Virus record (IMG/VR): IMGVR_UViG_3300023246_000533
Location: 1 to 31,692 of that record
Origin: a virus
Taxonomy: Duplodnaviria; Caudoviricetes
Length of the DNA stretch: 31,692 nt
Strand: one strand, 5' to 3'
Shown here: one piece after another, positions 2,314 to 29,717 of the stretch
Layout: the number at the start of each line of letters is the position of its first letter
How positions within the stretch are numbered: position 1 is the stretch's first letter
The notes under the pieces: model-generated
The model's input: only the letters and a program-made list of their open reading frames with translations
What the model was told of the DNA's origin: nothing
The model's database searches: none
Position numbers and translations under genes: made by a program

Positions 2314-2625
2314 TTAAAGATTTCGATTAATTTTTTCAATGTCTATAATTAGCCAGTCGGTATTTCTGATTTCGTTGCCGTCAATATCGTATAACATAAG
2401 GTTGTGAATATCGCAGGAAATTGAACCACGTTTGCAATGACATTGACCGGAGTCTCTATCTTGCTCCCATTCTCTTGTGTCGATTATTTCAACATCAAAT
2501 TCAAGATTGTAATGAGTGTTACCTATTGTTAGATCGATTTCAAATCTATCAGATTTTGGCTCTTGCTCGATTAAAGCAAATATCTCATCTGTGATATGTA
2601 CTTTTTTTGTGATTGATTCTACCAT
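2314..2625 (-). CDS. hypothetical acidic protein
   Basis: ORF track; A-rich start context. Confidence 0.55.
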   Translation of the reverse strand: MVESITKKVHITDEIFALIEQEPKSDRFEIDLTIGNTHYNLEFDVEIIDTREWEQDRDSGQCHCKRGSISCDIHNLMLYDIDGNEIRNTDWLIIDIEKINRNL

Positions 2626-2645
2626 TTTTTCAAAGTTTTAAAGGT

Positions 2646-3287
2646 TTATAATAAATGTTTCCATGTTATATTATGCAATATGTCGTATATTGTTCTTCTT
2701 GCTACCCCGAACATATTAGCTATTTCATTGTAATTAATTTCATCAAAATGGCTCCTTATTGAAATAACTTGTTTTTCTGTCAATTTACTTTTATGTAACC
2801 CTGTTCTGTATGCGTGTTGCATATTTTCTGCATGGGTACACCATTCTAAATTTAACAATTCGTTATTTGCTTTGTTCCCATCTATATGATTTATACACGG
2901 CTTATTTTCCGGATTATTAATAAAATGTAATCCCATTAATTTTGACATAATGTATGTTCTTAACTTATTGTCTTTACTTAATGATGTTTGCAAATATCCA
3001 TGATAAGTAATGCGTATTTTTAGCATTTTAGGTTTTCTGCCATTCTTACAACTTTTAATTCTGCAGAAATTTGACACTTTGTAAAGTCCTTCAAATCCCT
3101 TTACCTCTTTCCAAATTTCGCCTTCAATGTTTTCTAATGATAAATTTTTGTAATGCTCCATAAAAAAATGCTCGGACTTAGATTTGTTCAACGGAATGTC
3201 ATAAGAGTCCGTATTACTGCTTTCGTGCATAATAATCTTATCCGAGACTTTTTTAATGTTTTTAATATGACATTTTTGTTTGAACAT
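2646..3287 (-). CDS. NUMOD4-HNH homing endonuclease with C-terminal HTH
   Basis: EIWKEVKGFEGLYKVSN (NUMOD4), INHIDGNKANN..NLEWCT..EN.QH (HNH_3), SKLTEKQV..IR...IANMFGV (HTH). Confidence 0.9.
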   Translation of the reverse strand: MFKQKCHIKNIKKVSDKIIMHESSNTDSYDIPLNKSKSEHFFMEHYKNLSLENIEGEIWKEVKGFEGLYKVSNFCRIKSCKNGRKPKMLKIRITYHGYLQTSLSKDNKLRTYIMSKLMGLHFINNPENKPCINHIDGNKANNELLNLEWCTHAENMQHAYRTGLHKSKLTEKQVISIRSHFDEINYNEIANMFGVARRTIYDILHNITWKHLL

Positions 3288-24159: not shown

Positions 24160-25744
24160 TTGGCAACTTAACCGCCGCCGTTACTTTTGTTTGTGCAAAA
24201 ACCGTAAGCTCTGCATCAAGTTCAGTAAAATCCTTTACCAAAATATTTTCTTGTTTCAATGTCTTAACCCATTCATTGAAATATATCTTTTTATAATAAT
24301 CTATTTGATTTACATTTAATCCTTGAATTTCAACATCTGTTGAATGGACAAATGGCTCAATCTTTAACAATTTAATATACATCAACATTGAAGTACTATC
24401 ACTTTCAAATTGTGATTGATAATATTGTGTTAAAAAGTAATCAAGTGTTGTTTTTGGACTTCCGGCTGCTTTATATTTTACATACTTATCAAATATCACA
24501 TCGGGAGTTTCTAAAATATATCTGCGACCATAAGAAATTGAACTGCCTTTGTATGCTGACCTGTATTTTATTTCGCCGATAAAATCAGTAATGCTTTTAT
24601 CAACATATTCTGCCCATAAAGAACTATCATTTAATTTATCGTAAACAGGCTGAACGTTTAAAAATGCTGCTGTTGCCGTTTCATTACTTGAATCTTCTTT
24701 TGTGTTTGACCCCCATAAATCAAATTCCATTTCCTTGATTAACTGCTTAAACTCCTCACGCATTTCCCTTAATGTTTCAAGGTCAGGCTGAACATATCCG
24801 GCAACATTTGGGGCAATAGTAGGATCGGCTGCATCTTTTGGTTGTGGTAATCCTATAACTTCAGATACTGATTTTGTTTTCTTTAACCCCGAGCCATTAC
24901 AATATTTGCAAGTTTTTCCTTCTATTTCTCCAGTTCCTTGACAATATGAGCAATCTTCAAGATAACGCCAAAATATAGGATATAAATGTAAATACTTATA
25001 AACTGATTTTGTGCTATTATTTTGTAGATACTCCTCGGCTGTTTCAAGTGTTGTTTCAACTGGCGAAGCCATTATATTATAAACGTCATCGGGAGTTTGT
25101 GATATTCTAATTGCAGGAACTCTGCCCAATATATTCCTGTACGTTTCATTTTTTAATATATCGAAGTTTTCGCCGTCTTTGGTTTGTACGATTATATCTC
25201 TGCGGTCATCTACAACTCTGTATTGTTTTACTCCATCAGGTAATTCTTTTGGCTCAAATATTACATATTGACAAATCAGACCGTCAAAACCGTAATCACG
25301 TATTGAATTTATTGATTTATATGTAGGATATGGCTCTCCGTCTTTGCCAACTTCGACAAAAAACAAACCATTCGGATCGACATAGAATTTATTAATACAT
25401 TGCTTAACCCATCTTGGTATTGTATATCCTTTATATGTTGCTGAAGTGAAATCCTTTCTTAACCTATCAGATAATTCATAATAGCGTGAGCCGCCTTTTG
25501 CTGAGAATACCTTGTCGTTTGGCTTTAGCAATCTTGCATACAATGATTTATTTGACCGCGTGAGTTTATCTCGTAGCTTTTTTTGAGTATCATCTTCGTA
25601 ACCGTCAATTTTCTGAACTTTGACATCAACGCCGTTTATGTGCATATTTAATTCTCTATGCCTTTTACGTGCTAAATCAATGTTTACTTTGTTTTTCGGA
25701 GTCTTTATTAACTCAAATATCTCAGTATCGTTCTTGAATATCAT
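24152..25744 (-). CDS. portal protein (putative) with inserted CxxCxGxG zinc finger
   Basis: 530 aa, downstream of terL; LGRVPAIR and NETATA portal-like motifs; CSYCQGTG...CKYCNGSG. Confidence 0.8.
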   Translation of the reverse strand: MIFKNDTEIFELIKTPKNKVNIDLARKRHRELNMHINGVDVKVQKIDGYEDDTQKKLRDKLTRSNKSLYARLLKPNDKVFSAKGGSRYYELSDRLRKDFTSATYKGYTIPRWVKQCINKFYVDPNGLFFVEVGKDGEPYPTYKSINSIRDYGFDGLICQYVIFEPKELPDGVKQYRVVDDRRDIIVQTKDGENFDILKNETYRNILGRVPAIRISQTPDDVYNIMASPVETTLETAEEYLQNNSTKSVYKYLHLYPIFWRYLEDCSYCQGTGEIEGKTCKYCNGSGLKKTKSVSEVIGLPQPKDAADPTIAPNVAGYVQPDLETLREMREEFKQLIKEMEFDLWGSNTKEDSSNETATAAFLNVQPVYDKLNDSSLWAEYVDKSITDFIGEIKYRSAYKGSSISYGRRYILETPDVIFDKYVKYKAAGSPKTTLDYFLTQYYQSQFESDSTSMLMYIKLLKIEPFVHSTDVEIQGLNVNQIDYYKKIYFNEWVKTLKQENILVKDFTELDAELTVFAQTKVTAAVKLPSD

Positions 25745-25763
25745 TCATCTCGTGTTAAAAACA

Positions 25764-25771
25764 CAAAATTA
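25764..25771 (-). promoter_or_regulatory. possible -7 promoter element upstream of portal
   Basis: TAATTTTG matches TAnnTTTG in an intergenic gap. Confidence 0.4.
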
Positions 25772-25826
25772 ATGCAAAATGATAATAGAATTTGTTATGT
25801 TAATAAATATTTTCTGTAAGCAATGT

Positions 25827-26054
25827 TTAAGGTTTAAGTATTACAACTTTTTTGAAAGGTTTTAATGCGGTTTCATATTCCGCATTTTCAAGAACAATCA
25901 GACTTGTTAATTGAGTGTGAGTTTCTAAATGCTTCTGAATCTCTAAATGCTGTTTGAAAAGTTTTCGCATTTTAACATAACTTATCCCAGTATATGTTTT
26001 GTTGATTTCCTTTTTGAAATCTGCTATTGATGGCTTTGGTTGTTCTTTGCTCAT
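25827..26054 (-). CDS. hypothetical protein
   Basis: ORF track; ATGA overlap. Confidence 0.55.
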   Translation of the reverse strand: MSKEQPKPSIADFKKEINKTYTGISYVKMRKLFKQHLEIQKHLETHTQLTSLIVLENAEYETALKPFKKVVILKP

Positions 26055-26323
26055 AATATCTTATTTTTAAGTAAAAAGTTAATCTCAATTAATCCCTTGT
26101 TGTAAAGGTTCTTTTTAATGTGTTTGCGATGAATAAACCATGATATTAGTTTGAATTTCTTTTTGCTTCCATCTTTGTAGAAAATTATCACTTTATCAAA
26201 GCCCATGTTTTTGCCCTTTGAATTTGTGTAATGATGAACATTTTGCTTAATCAGCTTCTTTACGACTTCTTTTGATGTTCGCTTGTTTGAAAATAGGTAC
26301 TTGAAATAATTTATTAGTCTCAT
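26051..26323 (-). CDS. hypothetical basic protein
   Basis: ORF track. Confidence 0.5.
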   Translation of the reverse strand: MRLINYFKYLFSNKRTSKEVVKKLIKQNVHHYTNSKGKNMGFDKVIIFYKDGSKKKFKLISWFIHRKHIKKNLYNKGLIEINFLLKNKIL

Positions 26324-26397
26324 TGTTTTTTAGCTTTTAATAGTTCAATTATTCTTTTTTCATAATTATTTATTTTAGATTACAGATATAATACTTT

Positions 26398-27585
26398 TTA
26401 CCAAGAGACAAGCCCTCTTTTGCGTTTATTTGTTAATTTCATCATACAAATATATCGTATTGCATCAATGCCATGGTTAAAGTCATCAATTGGCTTTCCT
26501 GTTTTCTCTCCAGTCTTACTTACCTCCCATTGATAATTCCTAAATTCTTTGATTAAGTTTGTTGAATTTGTATCAACATTTAATTTATACTGAAGCATTA
26601 TGTCAATTCCGAAATTAATAGAGTCTTTGCCTTTGCTTACTGGTTTTATGTTCCAATTATTACGCCTTATTTCTTCAATGCTTTTAGGCTCTGCACTATC
26701 TGCTATTATACTATCATATTTTTTTATCTGTAAATCTGCAAAATCTTTGCAAATATCTTGATTTGTCAAGCCTCTTTGATAGATATATTCTTTTAAATAT
26801 AACTCATTGTTCATTTTATAGACTCCGATAAATGCTGTCGGATCATTAGTATATCCAAAATCTAAACCGTAACCTATTAACTTTGCCTCTCCCGGTAATT
26901 CACGAATAGTTATTTGAAACACCAATCCCTCAAGATTGCCAAGCTCTCCAAGTCCGTAAACTTTCCACCAATTAGTGTTTCCTTTCCTGTGTTCAATAGA
27001 TTTAATAATTTCATCTTCTAAAAACTCATTGTCTAAATAAGTTGAAGTAAAAAAGTAAATATCATCTCTTTTTAATAGTTCTGTGTGGACCCAAAATTCA
27101 TGAGTAGGATTGAAATCTAAAAATATTCTCTTTTTTGTTCTAATCTCTAATTGTGTAAATGCTTCATAGTTTACATTGTTACACTCATTAATGAAAAGAT
27201 AATCACGCCTTGCGCCTCTTAATTTTGCATGGTCATCAGCACTAAAAAACTCAATTCTTGAACCATTATCAAATGTATAAATCATATCTGTTCTGTTATA
27301 TGACTTATTGTTGAATGAATTTCCCATTATTGTATAAAAGTCCCTGATAACTCCACGTTTTAAGTGTGGCACGCTTTCGGCTACGACCGATATTAATACT
27401 TTTGGCTGTTTAATTGCGATTATTATAAGACCTTGGATTGTGCTGAAAGTCTTTGAACTGTTATGGACCAATATAGGACCATTACAATCTATAAAGTAGT
27501 TATGATTATCTTTTATTGACAAATCATAAACATAAGGCTCTTGCACCTCCTCTATTTTTAATATGTCGGACTTACACAATTCCAT
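26398..27585 (-). CDS. terL: split-intein C-fragment (42 aa, 27585-27460) fused to terminase large subunit C-extein (PBSX/Terminase_3 type)
   Basis: VYDLSI (block F), ILVHN|S (block G), then SSKT; KLRGARRDYLFINE (Walker B), DFNP, GLDFGYTNDP, ADSAEP, NHGIDAIRY. Confidence 0.93.
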   Translation of the reverse strand: MELCKSDILKIEEVQEPYVYDLSIKDNHNYFIDCNGPILVHNSSKTFSTIQGLIIIAIKQPKVLISVVAESVPHLKRGVIRDFYTIMGNSFNNKSYNRTDMIYTFDNGSRIEFFSADDHAKLRGARRDYLFINECNNVNYEAFTQLEIRTKKRIFLDFNPTHEFWVHTELLKRDDIYFFTSTYLDNEFLEDEIIKSIEHRKGNTNWWKVYGLGELGNLEGLVFQITIRELPGEAKLIGYGLDFGYTNDPTAFIGVYKMNNELYLKEYIYQRGLTNQDICKDFADLQIKKYDSIIADSAEPKSIEEIRRNNWNIKPVSKGKDSINFGIDIMLQYKLNVDTNSTNLIKEFRNYQWEVSKTGEKTGKPIDDFNHGIDAIRYICMMKLTNKRKRGLVSW

Positions 27586-28097
27586 ATTCCACGTCTACTA
27601 TTTACAATATCTTTAATATGGGCTTCACTTACATTGTATTTTTCTGCAAGTTTCTTTCTTCCATAATATCTACTTACACAATTTCTAACATGCTCTCTTA
27701 TTTCTTCAACATCCTGTTCGGTTAGTTTTGAGTTTCCATTCAAAGAGCCTCTTTTGGGTGTTATTAGACTATTTCTATAAGCATGTTTTATATTTTCACT
27801 TCTAGTTGTGTATTCTAAATTATTTATATTATTATTTGTTTTATCACAATCAATATGATTTATCTCTTGTCCTTCCTTGCGTGGTCCAAAAAATGCTAAT
27901 GCTACAAATTTATGTACGGTCCAACTACTATATTTACCGTTATCATCTAATAACATTGTTTTCATGTAACCGTCTTTTGACTTGGCAGGCTTTAATACTC
28001 TTATTGTTTTACTACGCTTATAATTCAATGAACGTAACCTTCCTAAATCTGATGCTTCATAAGTACTGAAGTTCGGTATTGCTTTCCAATTTTCCAT
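27558..28097 (-). CDS. free-standing NUMOD4-HNH homing endonuclease between the intein halves
   Basis: Probable ATG 28097 (MENWKAIP..YEASDLGRLRS); EINHIDCDKTNNNINNLEYTT.SENIKH; C-terminal HTH; different frame from both intein halves. Confidence 0.92.
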   Translation of the reverse strand: MENWKAIPNFSTYEASDLGRLRSLNYKRSKTIRVLKPAKSKDGYMKTMLLDDNGKYSSWTVHKFVALAFFGPRKEGQEINHIDCDKTNNNINNLEYTTRSENIKHAYRNSLITPKRGSLNGNSKLTEQDVEEIREHVRNCVSRYYGRKKLAEKYNVSEAHIKDIVNSRRGIWNCVSPTY

Positions 28098-28108
28098 AAT
28101 CTTTTTTC

Positions 28109-28453
28109 TTACAAAGATAGTAAATGTTTTAGAGAAATCCAAACCCCCTTGACATAAAATTCATGGTCCTCTGTGCATATTATTGTACTGCCATTTTTCA
28201 ATGTAATCTTATATGTTTTTTTAGTGTTCACAAACCTAAATATATCTTGGACCACCTTTGTTTCTATCTCTTTTGTTTCTTCATTGAACGTCTGGACCTG
28301 TTCTCCTGTTTTAATCTTTGATATTTCAATACTTCCATTAATTGTTTGTATTAACTGATTAGGACCAAAACAAGATGTTCCGCCTTGTTGGATAGATATT
28401 CTTACAGTTTCGGCAACTAATTTGTAAAATGTTTTAGAATAAGTGGTAATCAT
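28109..28453 (-). CDS. terL: terminase large subunit N-extein (27 aa) fused to split-intein N-fragment (87 aa, from Cys at 28372)
   Basis: IQQGGTS|CFGPNQLI (block A), IICTEDHEF (block B TxxH), ends at TAA 28111-28109. Confidence 0.92.
   Translation of the reverse strand: MITTYSKTFYKLVAETVRISIQQGGTSCFGPNQLIQTINGSIEISKIKTGEQVQTFNEETKEIETKVVQDIFRFVNTKKTYKITLKNGSTIICTEDHEFYVKGVWISLKHLLSL
28112..28143 (-). promoter_or_regulatory. Bacteroidota promoter embedded in the 3' end of IntN, driving HNH/IntC-terL
   Basis: TTTG (28143-28140), 20 nt, TATCTTTG (28119-28112), 14 nt upstream of the HNH ATG. Confidence 0.65.
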
Positions 28454-28515
28454 TACGATTTTTATGTATTTGATTTACACATGATTAGTCTACTTGTTAC
28501 AGTACGAAAACAAAA

Positions 28516-28971
28516 CTATTCTCCTGCAAATTTCTCTAAATTATCTTTGTCTTTTTTATTTGAGGTTATTATTGTGATGTTTTGCTCTAATTTTTCATTC
28601 CCACTCGTAACGTCTAACTTATCTCCGTATTTCTTTGGCTTCTTTTTGCCTGCCGTCCATTTGTAAGCGTCTATTGCCACCCTTGCGCTTGCAGGGTCGT
28701 ATTTTTTCTTTAAGACTTTTTCAGCAATTTCTTCTATTTTTTCAGCGTCCAAATCGCCTGAATCCTCCTTGCTACGCGTGTAATTGTTTAAAAACTCTTT
28801 GTCATAATCTTTATGTTCATCATTTAACCAAGTATAAACAGTAGCTCTGCAAGGCATATCCTTATTTTTGTCAAGTATTGACTTTAGGCTTTTACCCTCC
28901 GAAATCTCGGCTGTTATCTTTAATTTAATTTCAGCTATTTCTTTTATTGTGTATTTATTTGGCCGTGCCAT
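28516..28971 (-). CDS. terS: terminase small subunit (Sf6 gp1-like)
   Basis: MARPNKYT..ISEGKSLKSI..MPCRATVYTWL..W.AGKKKPKKYGDK; directly upstream of terL. Confidence 0.85.
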   Translation of the reverse strand: MARPNKYTIKEIAEIKLKITAEISEGKSLKSILDKNKDMPCRATVYTWLNDEHKDYDKEFLNNYTRSKEDSGDLDAEKIEEIAEKVLKKKYDPASARVAIDAYKWTAGKKKPKKYGDKLDVTSGNEKLEQNITIITSNKKDKDNLEKFAGE

Positions 28972-28991
28972 TACTTTAAATTATATGGGTT

Positions 28992-29348
28992 TCATTTTTC
29001 AATTTCTGCATTTATAATAATACTATTTTCTAAATTATTAATTTTATTTTCCAAGTGTTCATATAATTTCCGGTAGTCATTTTCATCATTATAAACCCCG
29101 TTTATGATATTTCTTTTAATTATAGTAGAAAGCTTATTCATTTTAGCTAAATCATTTATCGTGCATTCGTATATTATATTGACAATATTTTTATATACTT
29201 TACTTTCTTTTAACATGAACATACTTGCTGTTTTTTCTGAATATCCCGCCCTTATGGCTGCCTGTTTTCCATTAAAGTCAATAATAAACTCTTTGCAGAA
29301 TTTAGCTTGCTTATCAGTCAAATTATATGGGTTTCCTTTTTTACTCAT
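28992..29348 (-). CDS. protein with Terminase_2-type small-subunit N-terminal HTH
   Basis: LTDKQAKFCKEFIIDFNGKQAAIRAGYSEKTA; the C-terminal part looks unlike typical TerS. Confidence 0.7.
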   Translation of the reverse strand: MSKKGNPYNLTDKQAKFCKEFIIDFNGKQAAIRAGYSEKTASMFMLKESKVYKNIVNIIYECTINDLAKMNKLSTIIKRNIINGVYNDENDYRKLYEHLENKINNLENSIIINAEIEK

Positions 29349-29717
29349 TTAATTGCTTAAATTAATAAGTTCAAATATCTTTGTTTTCTTTTTAAAGTCA
29401 GTTGTTATTTTAAAACAATATATTTTTTGTTCTCCATATGATGCAACCGATGTGTATAATATATTATTTCCATTCTTTTCATTAGTAGAATGCTGTTCTT
29501 TACAATTTATAGGTATTTCTTTTAATGGGTTTTCGTGTTCAAATACTGAAATAAGCCAATCTTTTACTTTTGATGCTTCCGTAAAGAAACCATTTTCTAA
29601 ATTAATAGTAATGCTTTTGCCTTGTTTTTCTATATTTAAGTAAACACTGCCATCACAAGCCTCTTGATGTATTTCGTTCATTGCTGTTACTAATATAGCA
29701 TTAGATATTTTACTCAT
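29349..29717 (-). CDS. hypothetical protein
   Basis: ORF track; abuts the next gene. Confidence 0.55.
   Translation of the reverse strand: MSKISNAILVTAMNEIHQEACDGSVYLNIEKQGKSITINLENGFFTEASKVKDWLISVFEHENPLKEIPINCKEQHSTNEKNGNNILYTSVASYGEQKIYCFKITTDFKKKTKIFELINLSN

Follow-up and report, generated by a model that had tools for sequence, protein, structure and literature searches.

A canonically split putative intein with a free-standing NUMOD4-HNH gene in the large-terminase P-loop of an uncultured phage

The large-terminase gene (terL) of an uncultured phage is carried in two minus-strand open reading frames (ORFs) with a NUMOD4-HNH gene between them, and the break falls inside Walker A, the ATP-binding loop. 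The most likely explanation, to which we assign a probability of roughly 0.75, is that the two halves of a split intein splice in trans to rebuild this P-loop and that the HNH endonuclease nicks intein-free terL, copying the cassette in. Taken separately, trans-splicing is very probable on the sequence evidence and homing is probable.

Layout of the fractured terminase gene

The window (the whole stretch of DNA that was analyzed, 31,692 nt) is a virus record of 31.7 kb that is 41% complete and carries a head-tail gene block. Three ORFs lie downstream of a small terminase gene, all on the minus strand and all in different frames. The parts of the locus are as follows.

28516 to 28971, minus strand: small terminase-like gene directly upstream of the split terL (Pfam Sf6_terminase, E 2e-24)
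28453 to 28109, minus strand: ORF 1, N-extein plus IntN, 114 aa (Pfam PT-HINT, E 2e-9)
28373 to 28453, minus strand: TerL N-extein, 27 aa, ending with the first half of Walker A (QQGGTS)
28109 to 28372, minus strand: IntN, 87 aa plus stop (TAA), with Cys1 and block B TEDH; net charge +1
27558 to 28097, minus strand: NUMOD4-HNH ORF, 179 aa from ATG 28097 (NUMOD4, E 2e-9; HNH_3, E 2e-11)
27585 to 26398, minus strand: ORF 3, IntC plus TerL, 395 aa (Terminase_3, E 4e-16; Terminase_3C, E 3e-17)
27460 to 27585, minus strand: IntC, 42 aa ending LVHN, with block F YDL..HNY and block G HN; net charge -5
26398 to 27459, minus strand: TerL C-extein, 353 aa, with Ser+1 and then SKT (Walker A lysine), followed by ATPase and RNase-H-like nuclease domains
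27460 to 28372, minus strand: insert (intein halves plus HNH), 913 nt

A preliminary description, made from the letters of the sequence, had read terL as two ORFs, the first a 27-aa N-extein ending QQGGTS followed by Cys1 and 87 aa of intein, and the second a 42-aa IntC with blocks F and G (HN) followed by Ser+1 and the rest of TerL. The ORFs and the Pfam matches, which include PT-HINT in ORF 1 and the C-terminal end of Intein_splicing in ORF 3 (E 1e-4), bear out both halves of this reading. It also placed a NUMOD4-HNH gene between the halves, with the ORFs in three frames and each with its own start, and this holds as well: relative to IntN, HNH is in the +2 frame and IntC in the +1 frame. 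The first ATG of the HNH gene, at 28097, lies 11 nt past the IntN stop (an alternative start is the TTG at 28142, where the ORF finder opens the frame), and its stop is at 27558. The IntC ATG sits within the HNH 3' end, giving a 28-nt overlap, and the only noncoding sequence in the cassette is the 11 nt after IntN.

Excision of the 913 nt from 27460 to 28372 yields GGTS-SSKT. Intact relatives read GGT(S/A)(A/S)(G/S)KT at Walker A, and Ser before the lysine is normal among them (mostly GGTSASKT or GGTSAGKT, with one GGSSSSKT). The C-extein is 50.5% identical over 101 aa to the TerL of Flavobacterium phages. The P-loop lysine and glycines are on different chains, and a single terminase match was counted in the 41%-complete record and also in an identical 48%-complete record; both are incomplete, and a second terL may lie outside them. 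Packaging would therefore depend on splicing, which we infer with good support from the sequence.

Two further features of the window are recorded here. Two small-terminase-like genes, at 28516-28971 and 28992-29348 (both minus strand), stand in tandem and belong to separate Pfam families (Sf6_terminase and Terminase_2). A second NUMOD4-HNH, at 2646-3287 (minus strand), shares 36% identity over 136 aa with the HNH of the intein cassette. A promoter scan was at chance level (6 found versus 6.3 expected).

A family of inteins in P-loops

A profile built from eight IntN sequences recovered 152 IMG/VR loci, and the best 80 were kept. An IntC could be located in 70 of these (the other 10 IntN loci were left out), which reduce to 43 at 90% identity; 38 of the 43 are at Walker A, and the 5 non-Walker-A representatives were set aside. 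Among the 38 nonredundant Walker-A inteins from the best 80 of 152 loci, 31 are split with an HNH gene, four are contiguous with an HNH overprinted in the +1 frame, two are split without HNH, and one is a contiguous mini-intein (L077). The 31 split loci with HNH fall into four frame classes (17, 6, 6, and 2 loci; best 80 of 152), and the arrangement in the window is found in 6 of the 31 and is not the commonest.

The family was found by profile and phmmer searches; a word-index protein search with the IntN ORF matched only itself, and tblastn against cultured phages gave only distant inteins (55 records, all <60% identity). GTDB genomes contributed two weak loci (L282 and L283), the first of which is a contiguous HINT in another context. 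Among the 150 best representatives from 1.84 billion proteins, 101 end no more than 30 aa from the IntN match, a classification by crude motif pattern in which some proteins may be cut by contig ends. Judging from these sequences, the element in the window is one member of a common, wide family.

Host proteins of the family are PBSX-type TerL and DnaB-like helicases (Pfam of 16 hosts: 7 terminase, 4 DnaB-like, and 5 with no match). The split intein and HNH cassette lies in the Walker A of a DnaB-like helicase in L079, L081, L082, and L089 according to Pfam, and at the same helicase site by motif and tree position in L083, L087, L102, L109, L110, and L113. By sequence this amounts to an apparent host switch. 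Additional sites were also observed. In L048 and in L051/L052 the 3' part of terL contains a second intein, located after ..DDA within the nuclease domain; at this site L048 also shows an additional frame break and an HNH-like match. Apparent split inteins occur at non-Walker-A sites (..VKIHG, ..LIWDE, and ..VLMNG) in L116-L119, L103-L108, L101, and L114, and the charge polarity is reversed in L116/L119.

Some intein-free terL relatives carry in the same P-loop a 32- to 43-nt insert with an in-frame stop and a GC hairpin. These inserts are flanked by codons for the same amino acid (GGA..GGA in L024, L261, and L267), often have an HNH directly upstream, and are present in 8 of 78 metagenome relatives. 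By analogy with T4 gene 60 they are candidates for ribosome bypass, and we found no description of such inserts in published literature. The loci are listed here.

Hairpin inserts in terL Walker A: L024, L039, L040, L146, L156, L187, L238/L245/L246, L261/L262/L263/L269, L267

The HNH endonuclease and an empty allele

The profile of the HNH family matches PDB 1u3e, annotated as HNH homing endonuclease (E 4.5e-20), which we take to be I-HmuI, and the His and Asn of the HNH motif are invariant in 9 of 9 aligned sequences. I-HmuI-type HNH nickases, in the accessible portion of their description (PMC3428280), resemble the HNH in the window in their NUMOD4-HNH sequence and intact His/Asn motif. However, those nickases are encoded within group I introns that interrupt DNA polymerase genes, whereas this one lies in a split intein, and their C-terminal DNA-binding part does not align with it.

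Run X9, which contains the cassette-bearing locus, also has a terL contig that lacks exactly 913 nt and reads GGTSSGKT. In this contig 27453 is connected to 28380 through 13 intervening letters, so that the extent replaced is as follows.

27454 to 28379, minus strand: the 913-nt cassette, together with 7 nt on its upstream side and 6 nt on its downstream side

At the junction, 9 of 13 letters are different in the empty allele, compared with 0 and 2 differences in the flanks on either side. Judged from the sequence, this cluster of mismatches looks like either a short tract that came in together with the cassette or a target recoded to a resistant form. Depths in X9 are 9.9 for the empty allele, 18.1 for the filled allele, and 27.5 for the shared flank, such that the two alleles sum to the flank. 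The empty allele comes from 1 of 8 runs, X9, which is a possible source of the record; its contig is short, extends only 30 letters on the shorter side, and was recovered with the likeness cut set at 85. The allele is absent from runs X1, X14, X16, and X17, and the loci nearest the C-extein (19 viral and 80 from metagenomes) contain no second copy. Both flank variants of the empty allele occur on cassette-bearing contigs of X13 and X15, in which the downstream terL differs at 24 of 1,046 letters. Therefore, the identical cassette is present in two terL backgrounds, a situation that homing or ordinary recombination can each produce.

Evidence on shared descent was drawn from trees and distances. 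The intein and HNH trees, which are unrooted and have about half of their forks open, have in common two main groups as well as five starred sister pairs. Distance correlations (Mantel, n=21) are 0.41 for intein and HNH, 0.36 for intein and extein, and 0.33 for HNH and extein, values that do not discriminate between a mobile cassette and co-descent. On the extein tree the TerLs with an intein group together (3 changes), a pattern that is biased because sampling was by intein. Among intein-free TerL relatives, 5 of the 7 that carry an interruption in Walker A have an upstream HNH, versus 0 of the 51 intact ones, although near-duplicates are included and the rows are not independent (L214 was left out).

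Pooled pN/pS over six pairs of split loci is 0.22 for IntN, 0.14 for IntC, 0.21 for HNH, and 0.27 for the C-extein, with synonymous sites near saturation in several pairs. These values indicate purifying selection on both intein halves and on the HNH in relatives; the sequence of the window stands outside this test because it has no close nonidentical relative.

Taken as sequence evidence, the empty allele, the shared tree groups and sister pairs, the two unrelated host proteins, and the HNH genes upstream of interrupted terLs support mobility of the cassette. We consider it unlikely that the intein splices while the HNH only rides along, or assists packaging, and does not mobilize the cassette. 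Such a reading can draw on correlations that are alike in all three comparisons, on the 3 of 38 members (best 80 of 152 loci) that lack HNH, and on the 36%-identical NUMOD4-HNH elsewhere in the window. It sits poorly with the selection on HNH in relatives (0.21), the profile match to a homing endonuclease, and the empty allele whose mismatches cluster at the junction. Likewise, the same element in two unrelated host proteins and the 5 of 7 versus 0 of 51 count, near-duplicates included, speak against a mere passenger.

The intein halves and protein splicing

Class-1 inteins act through a Cys1 thioester, transfer to Ser+1, and Asn cyclization. The splicing residues kept in the window are Cys1, T67/H70, the block F Asp, HN, and Ser+1. 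Within the 38 Walker-A members (best 80 of 152 loci), Cys1 and [TS]xxH are kept in all 38, as is HN, after which comes Ser in 37 and Cys in 1, and the block F Asp pattern is kept in 37. Furthermore, in the split loci of the same best 80, a Met lies 33 to 55 aa before the terminal Asn in 31 of 33, and the HNH end overlaps the IntC start by 8 to 28 nt in 28 of the 29 that were scored.

A basic IntN and an acidic IntC are found in 32 of 33 split members (best 80 of 152 loci). The same charge pattern is present in 4 of 5 contiguous members of that set, and it is therefore no mark of trans-splicing. The IntN of the window is the family's shortest (87 aa, tied), and its charge class is the weakest (+1).

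Structural evidence comes from the natural contiguous mini-intein L077, which is 40% and 45% identical to the two halves in the window. L077 is predicted as a HINT domain with pLDDT 95.5, and the best Foldseek match of the predicted fold is gp41-1 (E 2e-8, TM 0.72); the sequence match of the window's element to gp41-1 is distant (E 3e-5). The break of the family maps to the L077 loop 86-92, about 40 aa from the end, and a loop about 40 residues from the end is the canonical split position in the available part of the gp41-1 structure paper (10.1101/546465). Modeling on this relative thus predicts that the domain has the HINT fold and that the halves part at the loop where an endonuclease is canonically inserted. 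Sequence and relatives alike support the preliminary view of a canonically split, compact (129-aa), class-1 TerL intein with a free-standing NUMOD4-HNH.

We propose that a single late transcript would serve for the separate translation of the three ORFs, with initiation of IntC within the 3' end of HNH, and that the basic IntN would associate with the acidic IntC. Cys1 would then form the thioester, Ser+1 would take over the N-extein, and Asn would cyclize, rebuilding the P-loop as GGTS-SSKT. The HNH would nick empty terL near the Walker A site, and the whole 913-nt cassette would be copied in. A hairpin predicted at 27570-27660 (minus strand; z -2.5, one of three stretches folded) spans the IntC start codon, and in this folding model it could couple IntC translation to that of HNH.

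That the halves associate without ligating, as a dimerization clasp or with cleavage only, has a precedent in Aeh1 nrdA (PMC2677866, accessible part) and would make TerL a noncovalent two-chain enzyme of that kind. We rate this as quite unlikely here, since splicing residues are complete in 38 of 38 members (best 80 of 152 loci) and since the break falls two residues before the P-loop lysine, where the intein or free ends would presumably occupy the phosphate-binding site.

A single polypeptide made by recoding or RNA splicing (frameshift, readthrough, ribosome hop, or intron), with protein splicing in cis, is very unlikely. The hop-like hairpin inserts at the same site in relatives and the four relatives that are contiguous inteins lend it some plausibility, but the frame relations vary among the four classes of the 31 loci, all 17 same-frame split loci have 9 to 34 stops in the IntN frame across the HNH, and a Met of its own is present for IntC in 31 of 33 (best 80 of 152). 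Moreover, Rfam returned no intron family in 25500-29500 at E<=10 (2 chance snoRNA matches only), so that a group I or II ribozyme core around the nuclease ORF is absent by this search, and there is no stable hairpin at the IntN stop or upstream of the nuclease (fold z 0.53 for 28085-28175).

Even harder to credit is a dead terL whose defective phage depends on TerL supplied by intein-free relatives that co-infect the cell. The empty allele does coexist in X9 and the genome is incomplete; however, the filled allele is deeper in X9 and is the sole allele in the other runs that cover the site, relatives are under purifying selection, and 31 diverged loci (best 80 of 152) keep the layout.

Soundness of the split layout

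The search for indels used Logan contigs from eight runs rather than raw reads. Runs X1, X9, and X14 are possible source runs of the record; X11, X13, and X15 are not flagged as such and may come from one campaign. No indel is listed in any of the eight runs, and both breaks are bridged by a single gap-free contig in five (X1, X14, X9, X11, and X13), two of which (X11 and X13) are not flagged as a possible source. X15 has each break in a separate piece, X16 has only the IntC start, and X17 has neither break. The 2,056-nt locus is also present without difference in three other viral contigs. The split layout is real and is not an assembly error. Furthermore, the three-ORF layout and the conserved catalytic residues recur in 31 nonredundant loci, the window's own included (best 80 of 152), and this recurrence is, by sequence comparison, more than chance.

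The outcome that the preliminary description had named as fatal to its reading, two single-base errors that conceal one fused intein ORF, is excluded at the contig level because there are no indels in eight runs and gap-free contigs cross both breaks in five. Thus, although each junction would need just a one-base shift, errors that break a contiguous intein with an in-frame HNH are the least probable explanation of all, and an in-frame HNH is found in 0 of 38 Walker-A members (best 80 of 152).

Origin of the split state

A tentative account, which we hold as possible but rather doubtful, is that splits arose repeatedly and independently from a contiguous intein with a +1-overprinted HNH and not by one-step nuclease insertion, and that the cassette homes as a unit, has changed hosts between the P-loops of terminases and DnaB-like helicases, and can become a contiguous mini-intein again. 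Under this account the HNH 3' end would have given the IntC start codon; once trans-splicing was possible, the intein frame would have filled with stops. The mini-intein would have been re-fused by HNH deletion.

An HNH in the +1 frame with IntC in frame is the relation in 17 of 31 split loci and in all 4 overprinted members (best 80 of 152). The overprinted members have 0 stops in 167 to 180 codons, and the 17 same-frame split loci have 9 to 34. Contiguous inteins with a full +1-overprinted HNH are L069, L078, L080, and L094, as well as protein P0040; in L069 (2072-4210) one 712-aa ORF has a 185-aa HNH inside it (2451-3008). Overprinted members fall in two places of both trees, and L077 groups within the split members (95/81); these trees have no root and are resolved only in part. 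The frames in the window (+2 and +1) would be a later, indel-shifted state.

Relation to known systems

The layout itself has been known since 2009. The fractured genes of Dassa et al. (gp41-1, gp41-8, NrdJ-1, NrdA-2, and IMPDH-1; PMC2677866) have, in the accessible part of that paper, an IntN part, a free-standing endonuclease, and an IntC part at one locus, as here, and their catalytic residues are the same. Their IntC lengths (33 to 54 aa) and endonuclease/IntC overlaps (6 to 69) include the values in the window (42 aa and 28 nt), and gp41-1 likewise has a basic IntN and an acidic IntC. The preliminary description had raised a possible use as an orthogonal split-intein tool; with this charge polarity, which the window shares with gp41-1, cross-reaction between the two is possible. 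The assignment to the fractured-gene class made in the preliminary description therefore stands, with two host ORFs bearing IntN and IntC, a free-standing endonuclease, the residues, and a 28-nt overlap all present.

Several differences are apparent from the same source. Its endonucleases are GIY-YIG or Vsr-like whereas that in the window is NUMOD4-HNH, although use of HNH in fractured genes was predicted there. Its IntN range is 88 to 105 aa (87 aa here), and the hairpin upstream of the nuclease that is common there is missing from the window, which has no 5' hairpin. Its one terminase case has an atypical split (122-aa IntC) in a T4 gp17-type enzyme, in contrast to the canonical split here.

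Other naturally split inteins of phage large terminases, AceL-TerL, GOS-TerL, and the consensus Cat-TerL, come from aquatic metagenomes (PMC11766414, accessible part). They are atypical, with IntN of 25 to 37, IntC of 104 to 115, and Cys+1; the 87- and 42-aa halves and Ser+1 of the window rule out an intein of the AceL/GOS type.

In the available portion of a study of actinophage inteins with out-of-frame or antisense endonucleases (bioRxiv 10.1101/2025.01.02.630785), the likeness is to L069, L078, L080, and L094, in which the nuclease is overprinted on the same strand. The out-of-frame nuclease there is endonuclease VII-like and the HNH cases are in frame, whereas the element in the window is split. 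Mini and split inteins are expected outcomes in that study; the split state in the present family, however, retains an intact nuclease under selection and does not resemble a relic of decay. In T4 mobA/gene 60 and Aeh1 mobE/nrdA (bioRxiv 10.1101/2022.08.31.505936, accessible part), an HNH gene splits an essential gene and brings its rescue, as here, but by noncovalent assembly and ribosome bypass, whereas protein splicing is predicted for the window.

We found no description of a canonically split Walker-A TerL intein with HNH in the open-access literature. On the sequences compared, what is new is HNH in place of GIY-YIG or Vsr-like nucleases and a canonical in place of an atypical TerL split.

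Implications

With these findings, the fractured-gene layout now covers HNH nucleases as well as a canonical split within the P-loop of the terminase, and it proves to be common and not exotic in uncultured phages with Bacteroidota-type terminases. The family also offers some 30 compact (about 130 to 150 aa) Cys1/Ser+1 putative split-intein pairs, a class that is valued for protein ligation. Overprinted, split, nuclease-less, and mini forms are found in one family and an empty allele in the same sample, and therefore both the origin of split inteins and homing become directly testable.
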